Below are positions 5,157 through 18,353 of a DNA stretch of 64,000 bases, piece by piece. Below the pieces are notes generated by a model. The model was not told where the DNA came from. It did no database searches and worked only from the letters and a program-made list of their open reading frames with translations. This stretch comes from an uncultured Deinococcales bacterium (GTDB lineage: Bacteria > Deinococcota > Deinococci > Deinococcales > JAAFIG01). The translations under genes and the position numbers were made by a program. The stretch is taken from NCBI GenBank assembly GCA_964247135.1, contig CAXTTL010000001.1, forward strand, positions 37,887 through 101,886. The letters run 5' to 3'. How positions within the stretch are numbered: position 1 is the stretch's first letter; each line of letters opens with the position of its first letter.

Positions 5157-6766
5157 AGAAAGAACTGGTGGTTCTCGGGCTGTGCATGGTGGCGGCAGTC
5201 GGTATGGCGTTGACGCAATCTCTTGGACAAGGACAGCGCATCCTGCGGCTTGACAATGCCGCACCCGCCGAACTCGATCCGCACATTGGCAATGATTACT
5301 CGGCATCGGTGCTGGCGTACAACGTTTACGATACACTGGTGATGCCAGACCCAGACAACGGGGTGAAACCATCCGTTGCCACCAAATGGACCGTTTCCAA
5401 CGGCGGCAAACGTTTTACCTTCACCTTGCGTCCGAACGTTAAATTTCACGATGGCAGCACACTCGAGGCAAGCGATGTGGTTTTCAGTTACGAGCGCACC
5501 AAAGCCGTGGATCAGGGGTTTTCTTACCTCTTCCAAGGCTGGGTGACTGGCGTCAAAGCCGTCGGCAAAACGGTGGTGCAATTTGACCTTTCAGGCACGT
5601 ATGCACCCTTCCTCTCGACCTTGGTGCGCCTGCCCATCGTCAACAAAGACCTGGTGTTAAAGAACAAAAAAGACGGCAAGTTCGGCGCGAACGGCGATTA
5701 CGGACAAGCCTTCCTCTCGGGCAACGACGCGGGTTCGGGCGCATACCGCGTGACCCAACACAACCCGCAAACCCTGACGGTACTCGAGAAATTCAAAGAT
5801 TACTTCCTGGGCTTTAATCCCAAAGCCCCAGATGTCGTGCGCCAACTGTACAGCGTCGAATCTGCCACGATGCGCACCCTGATGGCACGCAAAGAACACG
5901 AAATCTCGAGCCAATGGCATCCGCAAGAAGTCCTCAAAGCCCTGGCAACTCAACCAGGCATCAGCCTGATTACCGAAGGCAGCGGCGGGTCGCTCATGTT
6001 TAAACTCAACACCCAACGCGCCCCAACCGACGACGTGAACTTCCGCAAAGCGATGGCGCTCGCCTTTGATTACAGCGAACTGGTTTCCGCATTAAAAGTC
6101 ACCGATAAAATCTCGGCAGGTGTTGCCGCTCGAGGTCCTATCGCCGCGAGCTTGCCAGGGTTTGATAAAGCTTTGGTCGCGCCAAAACGCAACTTGGATG
6201 CCGCCAAAGCCGCCCTCGCCAAATCCAAGTACGCCAACCAACTCGACAAAGCCGTGGTGGACATGGTTTGGGTCGCCGAAGCGCCGTTTGAAGAAAAAAT
6301 GGCGCTGTTGATGCAACAAAACCTGGGCGAGATTGGCATCAAAGTCAACCTCACCAAACTCCCCTGGGCAACACTCACCGAACGCTTCGTCAAAGCCGAC
6401 CAAACACCCAACACCTACCCGCTCTTCACCGGGCTTTCCTACCCAGACCCAGACGGACTCTTGTACGTGATGTACTCGAGCAAAGCCGCAGGCACCTTCT
6501 GGAGTTCGAGTTGGGTCAAAGATGCCGAGATCGACAAAGCCCTCGATGATGCCCGCCGGCTCAGCGACGTGAGCAAACGCATGGACTTGTACAAAAAAGT
6601 TCAAGAACGCCTGGTTGGAATGCAATCGGATATTTACGCCTACGACAACTTGGCGGTGTTCGCCAAACAAGATTACGTCAAAGTCCCGACGCTCGAGAAT
6701 GAAGGGCAGAGCGTGTCCACGATTGGGGCGAACTGGTTGTTCAGGTTGATTGAAGTCAACAACTGA
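5153..6766 (+). CDS. ABC transporter substrate-binding protein, family 5 (peptide/nickel/opine type)
   Basis: 537 aa with a signal peptide (MKKELVVLGLCMVAAVGMALTQS) and an AAGGAGGAG RBS. The family-5 SBP-like sequence reads LDPHIGNDYSASVLAYNVYDTLV ... FHDGSTLEASDVVFSYER. It is followed by Dpp-type permease and ATPase genes. Confidence 0.9.
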   Translation: MKKELVVLGLCMVAAVGMALTQSLGQGQRILRLDNAAPAELDPHIGNDYSASVLAYNVYDTLVMPDPDNGVKPSVATKWTVSNGGKRFTFTLRPNVKFHDGSTLEASDVVFSYERTKAVDQGFSYLFQGWVTGVKAVGKTVVQFDLSGTYAPFLSTLVRLPIVNKDLVLKNKKDGKFGANGDYGQAFLSGNDAGSGAYRVTQHNPQTLTVLEKFKDYFLGFNPKAPDVVRQLYSVESATMRTLMARKEHEISSQWHPQEVLKALATQPGISLITEGSGGSLMFKLNTQRAPTDDVNFRKAMALAFDYSELVSALKVTDKISAGVAARGPIAASLPGFDKALVAPKRNLDAAKAALAKSKYANQLDKAVVDMVWVAEAPFEEKMALLMQQNLGEIGIKVNLTKLPWATLTERFVKADQTPNTYPLFTGLSYPDPDGLLYVMYSSKAAGTFWSSSWVKDAEIDKALDDARRLSDVSKRMDLYKKVQERLVGMQSDIYAYDNLAVFAKQDYVKVPTLENEGQSVSTIGANWLFRLIEVNN

Positions 6767-6812
6767 TTGAAATGGGGTGGCTCGAGGGATTGGTTTCTCG
6801 AGCCACCTTTTG

Positions 6813-6876
6813 GGGGGCGGTGCGGTTATTGGTGGTGGGATTGTTGGCGGTGCGCTCGAGAGCGCACCCTACGGGG
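6813..6876. repeat. Left arm of RAYT unit (G/T-rich tract + REP hairpin GGTGCGCTCGAGAGCGCACC + CCTACGGGG tail)
   Basis: Read directly from the sequence. The 9-bp inverted repeat GGTGCGCTC/GAGCGCACC is centred at ~6859. The same hairpin recurs at 7743-7762, 9848-9867, 10094-10113, 13296-13315 and 13484-13503. Confidence 0.85.
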
Positions 6877-7116
6877 TGGGCGGGGCATGTGAATGGTTTT
6901 AATGTGGTTCATTCTGAATTAATAAATTGATCCCCAAAAAATACGCATACGACTCGAGATTCATGTATTCCTCGAGATTACGTCCGAGAGATTACAAAAT
7001 CACAGTTGAAGGTTTTGCTCGACTTGTAAATTTATGGATTTTCAAATTGATAAAAAAATCTATTTCGTTTCGTTCGCATTCATTCACAACGTATTACACA
7101 CATCGACCAGTCACCT

Positions 7117-7656
7117 TCATCCCACAAATTTCTCTTCAACCCTCAAACCCTCGCGCCAATCTTCTGGGTATACCCCTTGCGAAACACACCGATGAAACGT
7201 ACTCCACTCCCAATCCCTGACCTTCGAGACCAACCCATGCTTGACCGGGTTGTAATGAACGTAATCCATGCAGCGTTCAAAATTGGCATCATCCCGAACT
7301 TGATGCTCCCAAAACCGCCTCTGCCAAATGCTCGTTTCGCGTCGCGCCACCCGAGACGCGCTCAACCTCGAGTCGTTCCTGATTTCTGGCAGGGCTTTGC
7401 TGCACAATTGCTTGATCATGTTCCAACGCAAGCTGAAATTGGTGTCATCTTCGGGCAGTGTCCAAATGGTGTGCAGGTGGTCGGGCAGCAACACCCAAGC
7501 ATCAATCGTGAACGGATGATGGCTTCGGGTGCGCGTCACCGCCTCGCGCAGCGCTGCCCGAAATGCAGGCTCGAGCAAAATGGGTTGCCGTTGATGCGTG
7601 ACCACCGTGAAAAAAAACGTGCCGCCAGGGGCATTGGCGCGGCGATAATTCGGCAT
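7117..7656 (-). CDS. rayT: REP-associated tyrosine transposase (RAYT; Y1 HUH transposase, IS200/IS605 superfamily)
   Basis: The N-terminus [23 protein letters not shown] is RAYT-typical. The HUH motif is [10 protein letters not shown] and the catalytic Tyr block is [13 protein letters not shown] preferred the start at 7656 over the track start 7707. REP hairpins flank the gene in inverted orientation. Confidence 0.85.
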
Positions 7657-7733
7657 GGCTCGAGTATAAGATTTTGGGATGTTCGTGCATGTGATATATC
7701 CGCACACCGATTTCCCGCAATTTTATCCCGATC

Positions 7734-7798
7734 CCCCGTAGGGTGCGCTCTCGAGCGCACCGCCAACAATCCCACCACCAATAACCACACCGCCCCCC
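7734..7798. repeat. Right arm of RAYT unit (inverted copy of 6813-6876)
   Basis: The sequence is CCCCGTAGGGTGCGCTCTCGAGCGCACCGCCAACAATCCCACCACCAATAACCACACCGCCCCCC. It is the reverse complement of the left arm except for one position (A vs G in ...AATAACC[A/G]CACC...). Confidence 0.85.
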
Positions 7799-7892
7799 AT
7801 CTCGAGCACACCCCCAAAACATCCAATTTCCACATGTTCCCACGCTTTCAAGACCGTCAATCACCCGCATCCCCCATTCAGGTACACCCCTG

Positions 7893-8924
7893 ATGCTCAC
7901 CTTCCTGACCTACATCGCCCGTCGCCTGTTCTCCTCCATTGTCGTGCTCATCGGCGTTTCAATCCTGGTTTTCGTGATCGCTCGAGTCATCCCTGGCGAC
8001 CCCGCCCGCATCGCCCTTGGTCCAATGGCATCACAAGAATCCATCAAGAATTTGCGCTTCGAGTTGTACCTGGATCGCCCTTTGCCTTTGCAGTACCTCG
8101 AGTTTGTGCGGCGTTTACTCAAGGGTGATCTTGGCACGAGTTTGTACACGCGGCGCGCGGTCACGGCAGACCTCGAGCAGTTTTTCCCAGCCACCCTCGA
8201 GTTGGTACTGGCGAGTGGTTTGTTGATGGTGGTGTTTGGTTTGCCTTTGGGGGTGCTGGCGGCGCGGTATCGCAATCGCTTGCCCGACAACGTGGCTCGA
8301 GTCTTTGCGATTCTTGGGGTGGTCACCCCCAATTTTGTCTGGGCAATTTTTTTGATCTTGATGTTTGCCTATTGGGTGGCGATTCTGCCCGTGGCTGGGC
8401 AACAATCGGATACGTTTTTGCTGCCGAAGAAAATCACAGGTTTTTTGATGCTTGATTCGATTTTGACGGGGCAATGGGCAATGTTCTGGGATGCGCTGAG
8501 GCATTTGATCTTGCCTGCGGCGGCGCTGGCGTTTGCGGGTTTGGGGCAGACCGCACGCCTGACTCGAGCGAACATGCTCGATTCTTACGGCAAGCCTTAC
8601 ATCGAGATGGCTCGAGCTTTTGGCATCAGTGAACTCGAGATTGCCACCAAGTACGCGCTGCGTCCCGCACTCATTCCGACGCTGACCATTTTAGGGCTTG
8701 ATTTTGCCGCGATGCTTGGCGGGGCGTTTTTGGTCGAGGCGGTCTTCAACTGGCCCGGCATGGCGCGTTACGCCGTGCAAGCGATTTTGCACAAAGACCT
8801 GAACGCGATTGTCGGCACGACCCTGGTGATCGCGGTGTTCTTTTTACTGGTCAACATCGTGGTGGATTTGATCGTTGGTTACGTCAACCCTCGGATTCGT
8901 TTTCACGAGGAGGCTCGAGGATGA
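7893..8924 (+). CDS. ABC transporter permease (DppB/OppB-like)
   Basis: 343 aa and multi-TM. The N-terminus MLTFLTYIARRLFSSIVVLIGVSILVFVIARVIPGDP is typical of DppB-type permeases. Its stop overlaps the next permease start (8921). Confidence 0.9.
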   Translation: MLTFLTYIARRLFSSIVVLIGVSILVFVIARVIPGDPARIALGPMASQESIKNLRFELYLDRPLPLQYLEFVRRLLKGDLGTSLYTRRAVTADLEQFFPATLELVLASGLLMVVFGLPLGVLAARYRNRLPDNVARVFAILGVVTPNFVWAIFLILMFAYWVAILPVAGQQSDTFLLPKKITGFLMLDSILTGQWAMFWDALRHLILPAAALAFAGLGQTARLTRANMLDSYGKPYIEMARAFGISELEIATKYALRPALIPTLTILGLDFAAMLGGAFLVEAVFNWPGMARYAVQAILHKDLNAIVGTTLVIAVFFLLVNIVVDLIVGYVNPRIRFHEEARG

Positions 8925-9781
8925 CACTTTCTCCTGCCAGAATCTTTCGCTCGAGGTCTTGGTATCGCTTTTCACAAAACCCGCTGTCAGTGATCGGTTT
9001 GGGCATTGTGGTGTTGGTGGTGCTGCTGGCGATTCTTGCGCCGATCATCACGCCCTACCCGAAGCACGCGGGGCAGTTTGTGAATTTCAGTGCGGGCACT
9101 GCCGCACCGACATGGCAGTATTTGTTTGGCACGGACACCATTGGGCGTGATGTTTTGACGCGCATCATTTTTGGCTTGCGGGTCTCGCTCGCGCTTGGCG
9201 TGGTGGTCTTGGCATTGGCTGTGCCCATTGGTGTGATTCTGGGTTTGATGGCGGGTTATTTTGGGCGGCACGTCGAACTGGTCATCATGCGAATCACCGA
9301 TGTTTTTCTGGCATTGCCACCTTTGGTGCTGGCGTTGGCGGTCTTGGGGTTTCTGGAGCCAAATTTGTTTAACGCCATGATGGCGGTGACCGTGATGTGG
9401 TGGCCATGGTACACGCGATTGGTCTACAACCTCTCCCGTTCAATCCGCACCGAGGGTTTTGTCACCGCCAGCGAGGTGATGGGCGCCTCGAGATTCCATA
9501 TTTTGTTCCGCGAGATTCTGCCGAATTGCCTGCCCTCGATCTTGACCAAAATGACGCTCGACATGGGCTTTGTGATTCTGATTGGCGCGAGTTTGTCGTT
9601 TCTGGGCTTGGGTGTCCAACCGCCCACCCCAGACCTCGGTTCGATGGTCGCCGACGGCGCAAAATACCTGCCCGATGCCTGGTGGATTTCGGTCTTTCCT
9701 GGACTGGCGGTCTTGTTCTGCGTGCTCGGTTTTAATTTGCTCGGTGATGGCTTGCGCGATCTTTTGGACGTGGAGGTATGA
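8921..9781 (+). CDS. ABC transporter permease (DppC/OppC-like)
   Basis: 286 aa. The sequence reads LFGTDTIGRDVLTRIIFGLRVSL ... LPNCLPSILTKMTLDMGFVILIGASLSFLGLGVQPPTPDLG, with an EAA-type loop region. Confidence 0.9.
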   Translation: MTLSPARIFRSRSWYRFSQNPLSVIGLGIVVLVVLLAILAPIITPYPKHAGQFVNFSAGTAAPTWQYLFGTDTIGRDVLTRIIFGLRVSLALGVVVLALAVPIGVILGLMAGYFGRHVELVIMRITDVFLALPPLVLALAVLGFLEPNLFNAMMAVTVMWWPWYTRLVYNLSRSIRTEGFVTASEVMGASRFHILFREILPNCLPSILTKMTLDMGFVILIGASLSFLGLGVQPPTPDLGSMVADGAKYLPDAWWISVFPGLAVLFCVLGFNLLGDGLRDLLDVEV

Positions 9782-9835
9782 ACCACGATTTTGCCGTGTT
9801 GTGGGTTGTACAGTGCAATGTATGGCGAACCGTTC

Positions 9836-10122
9836 GGTGCGCTGTAGGGTGCGCTCAAGAGCGCACCGCATTGACACCCCATCCCTCGAGATTAAAACCC
9901 GCAACCCATGATTTTGTTATTACCAAAATTAACGTTTATATCATTCGTTTCTCGAGATTGAAAAACATTGCTGGTGGTTTTTTTGTTGCCAAAATGAATG
10001 TTTGCACAATGTGTTTCTCGAGATTCAAAAACATTTTTTGTGGTTTTTTTGATGGGTTGGGGTGGTGCGCTCGGGGTTGGTGGGTTTGTGGGCGGTGCGC
10101 TCGAGAGCGCACCCTACGGGTG
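9836..10122. mobile_element. REPIN/MITE-like non-autonomous element A (two inverted REP hairpins enclosing ~2.5 AT-rich tandem modules)
   Basis: The terminal hairpins are 9848-9867 (GGTGCGCTCAAGAGCGCACC) and 10094-10113 (GGTGCGCTCGAGAGCGCACC), in opposite orientation. The right arm carries a G/T-rich tract like the RAYT arms. Internal tandem modules at 9916-9984 and 9985-10050 are ~66-69 bp and ~75-80% identical by eye, each with TTTCTCGAGATT[G/C]AAAAACATT. The element lies between permease 2 and ATPase 1. Confidence 0.75.
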
Positions 10123-10130
10123 AATTATTT

Positions 10131-11105
10131 ATGACAACGCCTCTCTTAAAAATCACCGATCTCCATTTGCGATTTAAACTCTTCGAGGGGGTTTCGCACG
10201 TGCTGGCGGGGGTCAACCTCGAGGTGCATCGCGGGGAACGGGTTGCGATTGTGGGCGAGTCGGGTTGCGGGAAATCTGTGACGTTGCGTTTGATTTTGGG
10301 TTTGTTGCGCGGCAAGAACATCATGGTTTCGGGCACAATCGAATTTGATGACCTCGAGATCAATGCTGCCAGCGATCAGAAATTGCGTGAGATTCGTGGG
10401 CGGCGCATTGGTACGATTTTTCAAGACCCAATGGCTTCGCTCAATCCAACCTTTACGATTCTCGATCAGATGGGTGCGGTGATCCGACGTGGAGAGCCGA
10501 AAATTTCTCGAGTTGCTTTGCTCGAGAAAGCAAAGCACGCGCTTTCTCAGGTGGCGATCAATGATCCTTTGCGAGTGCTCGAGGCGTATCCGTTTCAACT
10601 TTCGGGCGGCTTAAATCAGCGCGTCTTGATTGCGATGGCGCTGCTCAACGAACCCGAGTTGGTACTGGCGGACGAACCAGGCACGGCGCTCGATGTCACG
10701 GTGCAAGAGCAAACCTTGCGTTTGATGCGAGAATTGACGCAGAACCTGAATTCGGCGGTGCTCTTGATTACCCACAACCTCGGCGTGGTGCGCGAGTTTG
10801 CGGATCGGGTCTATGTGATGTACGCCGGCAGCGTGGTCGAGGAAGCCAGAACCACTGAACTCTTCGCCAATCCCAAGCATCCGTACACGCGGGCGTTGCT
10901 CGAGAGTGTGCCGAAATTGACGGGCACCAATTTGCCGCAGGGGATCGATGGTTTTGTGCCCGATTACACCAAGCCTCCTTTGGGTTGTCGCTTTCATCCG
11001 CGTTGCGCTCAGGCGACCCAAGCCTGCCAGACCTTGCCGCCTTTGCTCGAGGTGGCGCAAGGTCACAAGGTTGCCTGTGTGCTTTACGAGGGGGCGGCTG
11101 CATGA
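10131..11105 (+). CDS. ABC transporter ATP-binding protein (DppD/OppD-like)
   Basis: Walker A is GESGCGKS, the signature is LSGGLNQRV, Walker B is LVLADEPGTALD, and the oligopeptide-type C-terminal region is HPYTRALLESVP. The start is at ATG 10131 (MTTPLLKITDL). The longer track ORF from 10062 reads through the REP hairpin. Confidence 0.9.
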   Translation: MTTPLLKITDLHLRFKLFEGVSHVLAGVNLEVHRGERVAIVGESGCGKSVTLRLILGLLRGKNIMVSGTIEFDDLEINAASDQKLREIRGRRIGTIFQDPMASLNPTFTILDQMGAVIRRGEPKISRVALLEKAKHALSQVAINDPLRVLEAYPFQLSGGLNQRVLIAMALLNEPELVLADEPGTALDVTVQEQTLRLMRELTQNLNSAVLLITHNLGVVREFADRVYVMYAGSVVEEARTTELFANPKHPYTRALLESVPKLTGTNLPQGIDGFVPDYTKPPLGCRFHPRCAQATQACQTLPPLLEVAQGHKVACVLYEGAAA

Positions 11106-13253: not shown

Positions 13254-13287
13254 TGTTTCAAACCACCCCCGCGATGTTCCAAACAAC

Positions 13288-13507
13288 ACCCGTAGGGTGC
13301 GCTCTCGAGCGCACCGCCCACAAACCCACCCATCTCGAGCGCACCCCCACACCCCCCAACCCCAACAAAAAAATCACACAAAATGCTTTTGAACCTCGAG
13401 AAACGAATGATGTAAATGTTGTGTTTGGCAACAAAAAAATCATGGGCAATGCTTTTGAACCTCGAGCAATGTGATGCCAATGTGGTGCGCTCAAGAGCGC
13501 ACCCTAC
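13288..13507. mobile_element. REPIN/MITE-like non-autonomous element B (inverted copy of the element A family)
   Basis: The terminal hairpins are 13296-13315 (GGTGCGCTCTCGAGCGCACC) and 13484-13503 (GGTGCGCTCAAGAGCGCACC). The C-rich arm is CCGCCCACAAACCCACCC...CCCCCCAACCCC. Internal modules read AAAAAAATCA..AATGCTTTTGAACCTCGAG (x2). The sequence aligns to the reverse complement of element A. The element lies between the M24 peptidase and hyuA. Confidence 0.75.
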
Positions 13508-17492: not shown

Positions 17493-18353
17493 TTAAGACG
17501 TGAACAACGGAGCCATTTCACGTTGCTCGAGCAAATTTTGCATGAGCGCATCGCTGGGGCGCACTGCCATTTGGTTTGCCGCTTCGAGTACCTTGGGCAT
17601 GATCTTCAGGTCACCAGCCGTGCAAATGAAGACATCGGCTCGAGCCAGCGCCCAGTGAACCGCCAGGTTGATGTCGGCTTGATCCTCGAGCGGTTCATAC
17701 CAGGTGGCGCTGGTTTGTGGTCGTTCATTCCAGGGTCGGCGCGTGATTGTCTTGATCGTTTGCACCGCGACCTGGCGCTGCTGACAGACGAGCATCAATT
17801 CCTCGAAGTCACGGGCGTACTGCGGGTTTTGCATCAGCACATGGCTGTAAGGCAAGAGCACCGAATCAAACTCAAATTGCTCGAGCGCCCGTCGGTGCTG
17901 TGCCGCAACCGTTAAACCGTGACCCGTCACGCCAATAAAGCGCACCAATCCCTCGGCTCGAGCCTCGATCAATGCCTCGAGCGCACCGCCTGGTCCCATT
18001 GCGGTTTCCCACTCTTGCGGATCAACCAGGTTGTGCAACTGAATCGAATCGAGGTGATCGGTGCGCAGGCGCTCGAGTGAACGGTGAATGCTGTCCTTTG
18101 CCGCTTGATACGTGCGATCACCAGTTTTGCTCGCCAGAAAGAAATCCTGGCGGTGGGCGGGCATCCACGGACCAATGCGAAGTTCGGACTCGCCGTAACT
18201 GGCGGCGGTATCAAGATGGTTCACGCTGTACTCAAAAAGCTGCTCAAAGGCACGGTCGGCTTGGGCTTGCGAGACCGCGCTCAGACCCGCCGCACCGAAG
18301 ATGGCGCGACTGCTGTGGTGACCTGTGCGACCAAAGGGAATCTTGGGGATCAT
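17493..18353 (-). CDS. Aldo/keto reductase
   Basis: 286 aa. AKR-like blocks are present: [29 protein letters not shown] and IGVTGH. Confidence 0.75.

Follow-up and report, generated by a model that had tools for sequence, protein, structure and literature searches.

The window analysed here, a 64-kb stretch of contig CAXTTL010000001.1 from an uncultured Deinococcales bacterium, contains a transporter operon in which genes for an OppC-type permease (permease 2) and an Opp/Dpp-type ABC transporter ATPase (ATPase 1) are separated by a gap of 350 nt. The gap is filled by a repeat, element A, which an earlier note on this DNA had placed exactly between the two genes, in agreement with the permease stop and the ATPase start given in Table 1. 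A gene for a tyrosine transposase associated with repetitive extragenic palindromes (REPs), a so-called RAYT, is located ~2.5 kb upstream of element A, and a second copy of the repeat, element C, lies downstream of ATPase 1. Here we describe element A, a candidate REP dimer, together with the open reading frame (ORF) by which it is spanned. DNA of relatives was available as syntenic contigs (L009-L022) reached via protein look-ups; DNA identity to the window is ~86-91% for L017, L020 and L021, and no synteny with the window was found for L015 (M24 protein 72%).

Table 1. Features of the RAYT, element A and element C region (window coordinates; MFE, minimum free energy).
Feature	Position	Strand	Characteristics
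RAYT unit	6811..7799		66-nt inverted long arms (6811-6876 and 7734-7799, 98.5%), tails inward
RAYT gene (REP-associated tyrosine transposase)	7117-7656	-	NF047646, 197 bits against an 80-bit cut-off; homologues bear the same name
OppC-type permease (permease 2)	8921-9781		stop at 9781
Bridge ORF	9778..10134	+	118 codons; ATG on the permease 2 TGA (9778-9781), TGA on the ATPase 1 ATG (10131-10134)
Insert leader	9782..9843	+	62 nt; absent from element C; homologous only to L020; ends in half-REP GGTGCGCT (9836-9843)
Left 'short' REP	9844..9869	+	GTAG tail and hairpin with 9-bp stem, AA loop
Left inner C-rich arm	9870..9884	+	CACCCCATCCC (9875-9885) complementary to GGGTTGGGGTG (10054-10064), 91%; paired in the MFE structure
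AT-rich interior	9885..10053	+	34% GC; three modules beginning with CTCGAGATT, period 66
Module m0	9885-9950	+	
Module m1	9951-10016	+	
Module m2	10017-10053	+	truncated
G-rich arm	10054..10093	+	half-REP GGTGCGCTCG (10064-10073) 30 nt upstream of the full REP
Right REP and tail CTACGGGTG	10094..10122	+	GA loop; forms the 'long arm' together with the G-rich arm; 29/29 identical to element C
Opp/Dpp-type ABC transporter ATPase (ATPase 1)	10131-11105		ATG at 10131
Element C	13287..13507	-	between the genes for M24 peptidase and hydantoinase A; two modules, against three in element A

The 20-nt palindrome GGTGCGCTCNNGAGCGCACC has six exact matches in the 64 kb, against none expected, at 6849, 7742, 9848, 10094, 13296 and 13484. 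These REPs consist of GTAG followed by GGTGCGCTC-NN-GAGCGCACC, which forms a GC-rich hairpin. The two REPs of element A (9848-9867 and 10094-10113) extend into inverted arms of 26 nt (9844-9869 and 10092-10117, 92% complementary), and a census of all REPs places GTAG to the left of the first and CTAC to the right of the second. The inverted hairpins with outward tails that had been reported before are thus confirmed. The earlier note described this arrangement as the reverse of the RAYT locus, where the flanking REPs (6849 and 7742) indeed carry inward-pointing tails, but the orientation is no anomaly, as GTAG-outward head-to-head (HH) dimers constitute the predominant type of REP dimer (PMC3733652).

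The ends of element A are asymmetric, with the short REP on the left and the long arm on the right, and G-rich arms of the same type are present on both sides of the RAYT gene and at the left end of element C. The leader shares ATGA and its first 29 nt (33 nt in total) with L020 without any difference, and 21 of the remaining 30 positions match. In the interior, a direct-repeat search aligned 9909-9974 with 9975-10040 at 76% and located CTCGAGATT at 9885, 9951 and 10017, a spacing of 66 nt, and Tandem Repeats Finder reported a period of 66 with 2.1 copies and 79% matches at 9912-10051. The tandem modules noted before are therefore real, but their period is 66 rather than 66-69 bp, and their number lies between about 2.1 and 2.5 copies instead of simply ~2.5. 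Such an interior probably arose from a 34%-GC apex segment that expanded through tandem duplication of the 66-nt unit. On the side away from the tail, REPs are accompanied by arrays of tandem units, 16-30 nt long and starting with the 5' half of the REP (for instance gtggtgcgttacgaatttgacgtt or gtgcggtgggtttac), which were identified at L016:2085-2241, L021:13849-13925, L017:5195-5234 and 5830-5899, and at 10060-10103 of the window. It looks as though spacer and half-hairpin have been copied again and again, which would explain the G-rich arms.

Several features tie element A to the local RAYT. Each long arm of the RAYT unit comprises a degenerate half-REP, a G/T-rich linker, a full REP and CTACGGGG, and the right end of element A (10078-10120) matches both flanks of the unit (6833-6875 and 7777-7735) at 95% over 43 nt in BLAST, while the left end corresponds to the short REP only. 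Similarity to the RAYT arms is thus not confined to the 20-nt hairpin, the outcome on which the earlier note would have given up the connection. The absence of further copies, which it had named in the same way, was not observed either, since element C is present in the window and an orthologue of element A in L020. Element C is the reverse complement of element A, alignable from GTAG to CTACGGGTG (118 nt at 85.6% and 65 nt at 83%), and retains the open frame on its antisense strand, an observation that fits copying from an A-like source without proving it. The repeat may have spread from A to C by RAYT transposition or by gene conversion via the flanking REPs.

All six REPs of the window fall within 6.8-13.5 kb and within 7 kb of the RAYT gene, and the only REP-like sequence outside this region is an isolated 15-nt half-REP match at 17976-17990, on which grounds the REP family appears to be low-copy and clustered around its RAYT. 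Among all DNA fetched, the A-type interior was found only in element A, element C and the element A orthologue of L020. When genome contigs were scanned with the module pattern TTCTCGAGRTTNAAAARCATT, only eight single chance matches in unrelated taxa were obtained, none of them with a REP; scans of metagenome contigs yielded 0 matches to a 34-nt module pattern and only two unrelated single REPs for GTAG plus REP.

The occupancy of both sites differs among relatives. At the site of element A, L017 and L021 are empty, and permease 2 and ATPase 1 overlap as gaggtATGAc. L020 contains an orthologue of element A that is 84.6% identical, has one module fewer (a 69-nt gap) and carries both REP loops in reverse complement. 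L009 and L010 have a compact HH dimer with a 13-nt spacer in addition to other hairpins, and L022 (L011 and L014 in part) has 289 nt of unrelated repeats without any RAYT-type REP. At the site of element C, L020 and L017 are empty, L014 has one REP, and L016 and L021 have HH dimers with different tandem arrays in their interiors (24-nt units beginning with the REP 5' half and 16-nt C-rich units). Given these differences in occupancy, REP dimers in this lineage behave as cassettes polymorphic for gain and loss, and comparison of their sequences indicates that their interiors turn over fast via tandem duplication.

A further difference concerns the loops: between window 9857-9858 / 10103-10104 and L020:8209-8210 / 8386-8387, the loop dinucleotides are flipped (AA to TT and GA to TC), and stems and interior are oriented alike in both, a pattern suggestive of in vivo template switching or conversion mediated by the stem. 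Other families of hairpin repeats at the permease/ATPase junction (GAGAACACCGTCC...GGACGGTGTTCTC and CCCTCTCC...GGAGAGGG) are located at L009:456-713, L010:60-160, L022:2790-2940 and L014:80-125. The metagenome contigs L010, L011 and L014 break off within this junction, as repeats would be expected to cause during assembly. A tandem duplication of ~20 nt at 13254-13295 (gatgtttcaaac.. / gatgttccaaac..), immediately upstream of element C, is shared with L014 and L016 and is not found in L020 or L017; the empty C-site of L017 reads cccGTAGcgcc, which could be the footprint of a REP excision.

Element A was compared with REP doublets forming hairpins (REPINs) and other RAYT-associated REP dimers (Bertels & Rainey 2011, PMC3116915; Di Nocera et al. 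2013, PMC3733652; Nunvar et al. 2010, PMC2817692). Like these, it contains two inverted, GTAG-tagged REPs of one family, shares its REP with the flanks of a single RAYT gene (6849 and 7742), shows gain and loss at orthologous sites, and is predicted to form a hairpin through pairing of its outer parts. In contrast to typical REPINs, which form one hairpin as a whole, element A pairs only over its outer ~55 nt on each side in the MFE fold, and its REPs are 226 nt apart, whereas typical spacings are 71 or 110 nt (PMC3116915) or 20-100 nt (PMC3733652), and the interior consists of direct tandem AT-rich modules of 66 nt rather than a short hairpin-forming spacer. Additional differences are the asymmetric ends (short REP versus long arm with half-REP), the apparently low-copy, clustered distribution of the family, and the position of the element in a stop/start overlap where it is spanned by an ORF. 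Based on the six REPs grouped around the RAYT, the 197-bit score of the latter, the 43-nt arm shared at 95%, the census of tails and the published definition of HH dimers, element A is, with high confidence, a head-to-head (GTAG-outward) REP dimer of the REPIN type that belongs to the REP family of the RAYT at 7117-7656.

The earlier reader overlooked two things: an ancestral ATGA overlap of stop and start is split by the insert, and an ORF runs across it. The window exceeds the empty site by 353 nt and shows ATGA at either end of the insert. The ATG of the bridge ORF is the ancestral ATPase initiation site and is preceded by GGAGGT. A stop/start overlap of the kind used in termination-reinitiation coupling is found at each junction, and the ancestral ATGA is seen in L017 and L021. 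The coupling frame of the window insert contains no stop codon, against seven and three in the other sense frames and three, three and five in the antisense frames, and only 1.0% of 5000 dinucleotide shuffles were open in this frame (P 0.010). In L020, the insert is open over 95 codons and ends with TGA on the ATPase ATG (shuffle P(open) 0.040). The different insert of L009 is open over 99 codons and stops 1 nt before a GTG start with a GGAGGG Shine-Dalgarno sequence (P 0.074), and that of L022, built from unrelated repeats, is open over 98 codons from ATGA to ATGA (P 0.041). Altogether, the coupling frame is open in 4/4 complete inserts, which represent three independent lineages, and the other frames are closed in 20/20 cases; in the partial contigs L010 and L011 the frame is open to the contig ends. 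The C-site, whose downstream gene has its own AGGAGG, served as a control: every sense frame of its three long REP-dimer inserts is interrupted by stops.

Substitutions between the window and L020 are distributed over codon positions as 14/16/14, and this even spread indicates no amino-acid constraint on the bridge peptide, although the junction segments are invariant (33/33 and 12/12). No match of the bridge peptide to NCBIfam was found. A real small protein gene was rejected as an explanation because of the even spread of substitutions and because the three lineages encode unrelated peptides. An ATPase with an N-terminal extension from GTG 10062, the start called in L020, was likewise rejected, because the ATPases of relatives with an empty site align from the ATG. 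The ATPase 1 start of the window lacks a clear Shine-Dalgarno sequence.

Coupling requires a very short distance between stop and start codon, and Rho acts and loads on untranslated RNA (PMC12548453). We propose that element A inserted into the ancestral ATGA overlap of permease 2 and ATPase 1 and that the insert was kept stop-free and in phase. Ribosomes would initiate at the old ATPase start (GGAGGT-ATGA), translate the 118-codon bridge ORF, whose sequence is unconstrained, into a disposable peptide, and thereby open the REP hairpins as well as the long-range helix predicted between the REPs, before terminating on the ATGA of the actual ATPase start. Termination-reinitiation coupling would thus be preserved, and translation would shield ~350 nt of intra-operon RNA from Rho. 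From the pattern of open frames we infer that selection keeps the insert translatable, either for translational coupling or against Rho-dependent polarity. To this combined explanation, a REP dimer in a former ATGA overlap together with a translatable bridge ORF, we assign a probability of about 0.6; that 9778-10134 itself functions as a bridge is a somewhat better than even proposition.

A number of points weigh against this explanation. Translation of the bridge ORF is a prediction from the sequence, and the open-frame hypothesis was framed after the data had been seen and draws on only three independent lineages. In L014, which belongs to the same insert lineage as L022 and is represented by an incomplete contig, an in-frame TAA occurs 68 codons before the ATPase start, which is equipped with an AAGGTG Shine-Dalgarno sequence. 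After 44 random substitutions, the number separating the window from L020, the frame stays open by chance in 15% of cases (P 0.15), which is not significant taken alone. The ATPase start codon and the AU-rich 9 nt upstream of it are unpaired in the MFE fold, so that independent initiation of the ATPase is possible. In addition, the module-bearing element occurs at only two loci in the DNA covered, and REP-mediated gene conversion is a possible route of its spread instead of RAYT transposition.

Some of these observations would also suit a neutral or selfish REP dimer that bridges nothing, in which case ATPase 1 would initiate independently and the open frame would be a coincidence or a leftover of insertion. 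The unpaired, AU-rich start region, the stop within the frame of L014, the unconstrained bridge peptide and the 15% chance of an open frame after random substitution are all compatible with this explanation. However, in three independent insert lineages it is precisely the coupling frame that is open, with 20/20 other frames closed, multiplying the shuffle probabilities gives only ~3e-5 to 1e-4, and the dimers at the C-site are closed in all sense frames; we therefore regard a purely neutral dimer as unlikely, if not negligibly so. REPs of the Escherichia coli malEFG operon serve as a model for a role in protecting mRNA or in setting expression ratios, and the REP hairpins or the REP-REP helix of element A might similarly protect the upstream mRNA or set the permease:ATPase ratio, which would be compatible with a bridge ORF. 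The folds predicted for the region are strong (-146 kcal/mol with a z-score of -7.4 for the plus strand, and a z-score of -9.1 for the minus strand), the palindromic REP hairpins can fold in either orientation, and mRNA-stabilising roles of REPs are established according to work cited in PMC3733652. The intra-operon RNA structure suggested in the earlier note is in line with the predicted fold, but copy C is inverted within the same operon, which argues against a strand-specific role of RNA or of a G-quadruplex (G4). Moreover, a ribosome on the ORF would melt the structure, and no Rfam match was obtained in the element region at E<=1 or in the whole window at gathering thresholds. A stabiliser role of the REP type is possible but lacks support from conservation, as the content of the A-site differs entirely between close relatives and is missing in two of them, and a functional RNA appears rather improbable.

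An internal promoter in the AT-rich modules, which would drive the ATPase genes, fared worse. The interior is 34% GC and contains one weak match at 9914 (TTGTTA-19-TATCAT), but a sigma-70-like consensus scan of 9500-10500 returned 0 promoter-like sites on either strand, relatives with an empty site need no such promoter, and copy C is inverted, leaving this suggestion of the earlier note with very little probability. A terminator scan of the element matched only a weak 5-bp stem at 10110-10122. Equally doubtful is a regulatory G4 in the right arm. The G-runs at 10054-56, 10059-62, 10073-76, 10082-84 and 10090-92 are exactly as had been listed, and G4Hunter scores of 1.57-1.80 in element A, -1.9 to -2.5 in element C and 1.55 / -1.52 in the RAYT flanks show a moderate, family-wide G4 potential that is a property of the arms. 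For 10051-10098, the mean of 1.57 and peak of 1.80 exceed a score of 1.5, but a canonical G4 of four G3+ runs with loops of <=7 nt is not present, as one loop would need 10 nt. Furthermore, the G-rich strand is sense in element A and antisense in element C, and the arms resemble tandem partial (half-REP) duplications rather than a conserved G4 design. Scarcely credible, finally, is a MITE (miniature inverted-repeat transposable element) that arose when the RAYT unit lost internal sequence; for such an element, termini of the same orientation and a derived interior would be expected. Although the REP and the 43-nt arm are common to element A and the RAYT flanks, the orientation of the REPs is reversed, the long arm is present at one end only, and no homology between the modules or interior of element A and the AT-rich interior of the RAYT unit was found by BLAST, which already contradicts such an origin. 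The RAYT interior does contain CTCGAGATT at 6953 and 6971, as the earlier note had pointed out, but this is weak evidence, since 20 copies of the 9-mer are present on the two strands of the window, and the CTCGAG hexamer is found 385 times against ~18 expected. The earlier note's description of element A as a non-autonomous derivative of the RAYT unit holds insofar as this is a non-autonomous, REPIN-like repeat tied to the local RAYT, and fails with respect to orientation, arms and interior.

Individual aspects of the proposed REP dimer with a bridge ORF have counterparts in other systems. Bacterial interspersed mosaic elements (BIMEs) of E. coli include the integration host factor (IHF)-binding RIP and RIB elements. 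Element A resembles BIMEs as a mosaic of inverted REPs and non-REP internal motifs between cistrons of transporter operons, but its internal motifs are unrelated and the IHF consensus is lacking: WATCAANNNNTTR has 0 matches in 9700-10200 and three in the whole window. REP clusters encoding 43-82 amino acids have been documented, and translated repeats are known from Rickettsia (RPEs) and as intragenic REPs from Opitutus terrae and Thauera (PMC3733652). As in these cases, REP-type sequence would be kept open and read by ribosomes; there, however, the repeats lie in frame within a gene, whereas element A constitutes an ORF of its own, joined to the cistron on either side by an ATGA overlap. A MITE with an internal minisatellite has been described for Porphyromonas gingivalis (PMC4596501) and is likewise a non-autonomous inverted-repeat element with a tandem-repeat interior of variable copy number, but it is derived from an insertion sequence with terminal inverted repeats and is not a RAYT-associated REP dimer. 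Precedents therefore exist both for tandem repeats in a MITE (PMC4596501) and for translated intragenic REPs (PMC3733652). Translational coupling of subunits of heteromeric complexes through NTGA motifs is outlined in a review (PMC12548453, citing Huber et al. 2023). Ancestrally, permease 2 and ATPase 1 met in such a -4 ATGA overlap, and the insert retains ATGA at both ends, but here coupling would be relayed via an intervening ORF of 118 codons made of repeat DNA. In the literature, no account was found of an ORF built from repeats that passes coupling on from one cistron to the next.

REPs and REPINs are usually seen as extragenic hairpins, and their tolerance inside tightly coupled operons has rarely been asked about. 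The locus provides a natural experiment in this respect: a single ATGA junction is empty in two relatives and carries unrelated inserts in three lineages, each open and in phase, and inserts of the same family at an uncoupled junction, the C-site, do not keep an open frame. We tentatively hypothesize, at slightly less than even odds, that repeat insertions at NTGA-coupled junctions survive only as bridge ORFs, with selection acting on the absence of stops and on phase alone, and that this is a general rule for the tolerance of REPs and MITEs in operons for heteromeric complexes. A REPIN or any other repeat would then be translated into a throw-away peptide, which here would pass ribosomes on from permease 2 to ATPase 1 and protect the insert against Rho. 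If translation were confirmed, 'intergenic' repeats would be under selection purely for translatability, and annotators would gain a criterion for relay ORFs. Element A itself is of moderate interest and largely an ordinary bacterial repeat; its stop-free insertion is the unusual part, and the bridge-ORF pattern is what is worth testing. The locus also documents the fast turnover of REP-dimer interiors by tandem duplication, half-REP stuttering and loop flips, which bears on the evolution of REPINs.

The RAYT unit varies among relatives as well. Between the left REP and the RAYT stop codon, the window contains an AT-rich segment of 239 nt (6874-7112, 37% GC), which is missing in L017 and L021, where the REP abuts the 3' end of the RAYT gene, and is homologous only to a longer AT-rich stretch with small ORFs in L011. 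In L020, a ~30%-GC segment with a 150-aa ORF (L020:5580-6160) has replaced the RAYT gene, of which only a 3' remnant is left; as this relative retains element A, the REP dimer persists there without a local RAYT. In L009, a second Y1_Tnp (IS200-like) gene directly adjoins the RAYT gene (L009:3283-3795).

The CTCGAG palindrome is the commonest hexamer of the window (~21-fold over a naive expectation of 18 copies) and is evenly spread. Within genes, the frame CTC-GAG is favoured (32/55). Its density is 3.4-7 per kb in all relatives (L009-L022) versus 0.1-0.5 per kb in unrelated loci, and 75-85% of the sites are conserved between species, compared with 46-53% for all hexamers. Other palindromes are nearly absent, with 0 copies of GAGCTC and CTGCAG and one copy each of CCCGGG, TTCGAA and GTCGAC. 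This abundance resembles that of the cyanobacterial highly iterated palindrome HIP1; among the papers searched, no link between highly iterated palindromes and CTCGAG was found. Two CTCGAG sites also build a terminator-like hairpin at 6775-6806, after the gene for the solute-binding protein (GGTGGCTCGAG...CTCGAGCCACC, then TTTTGGGG), which is conserved in L017 and L020.

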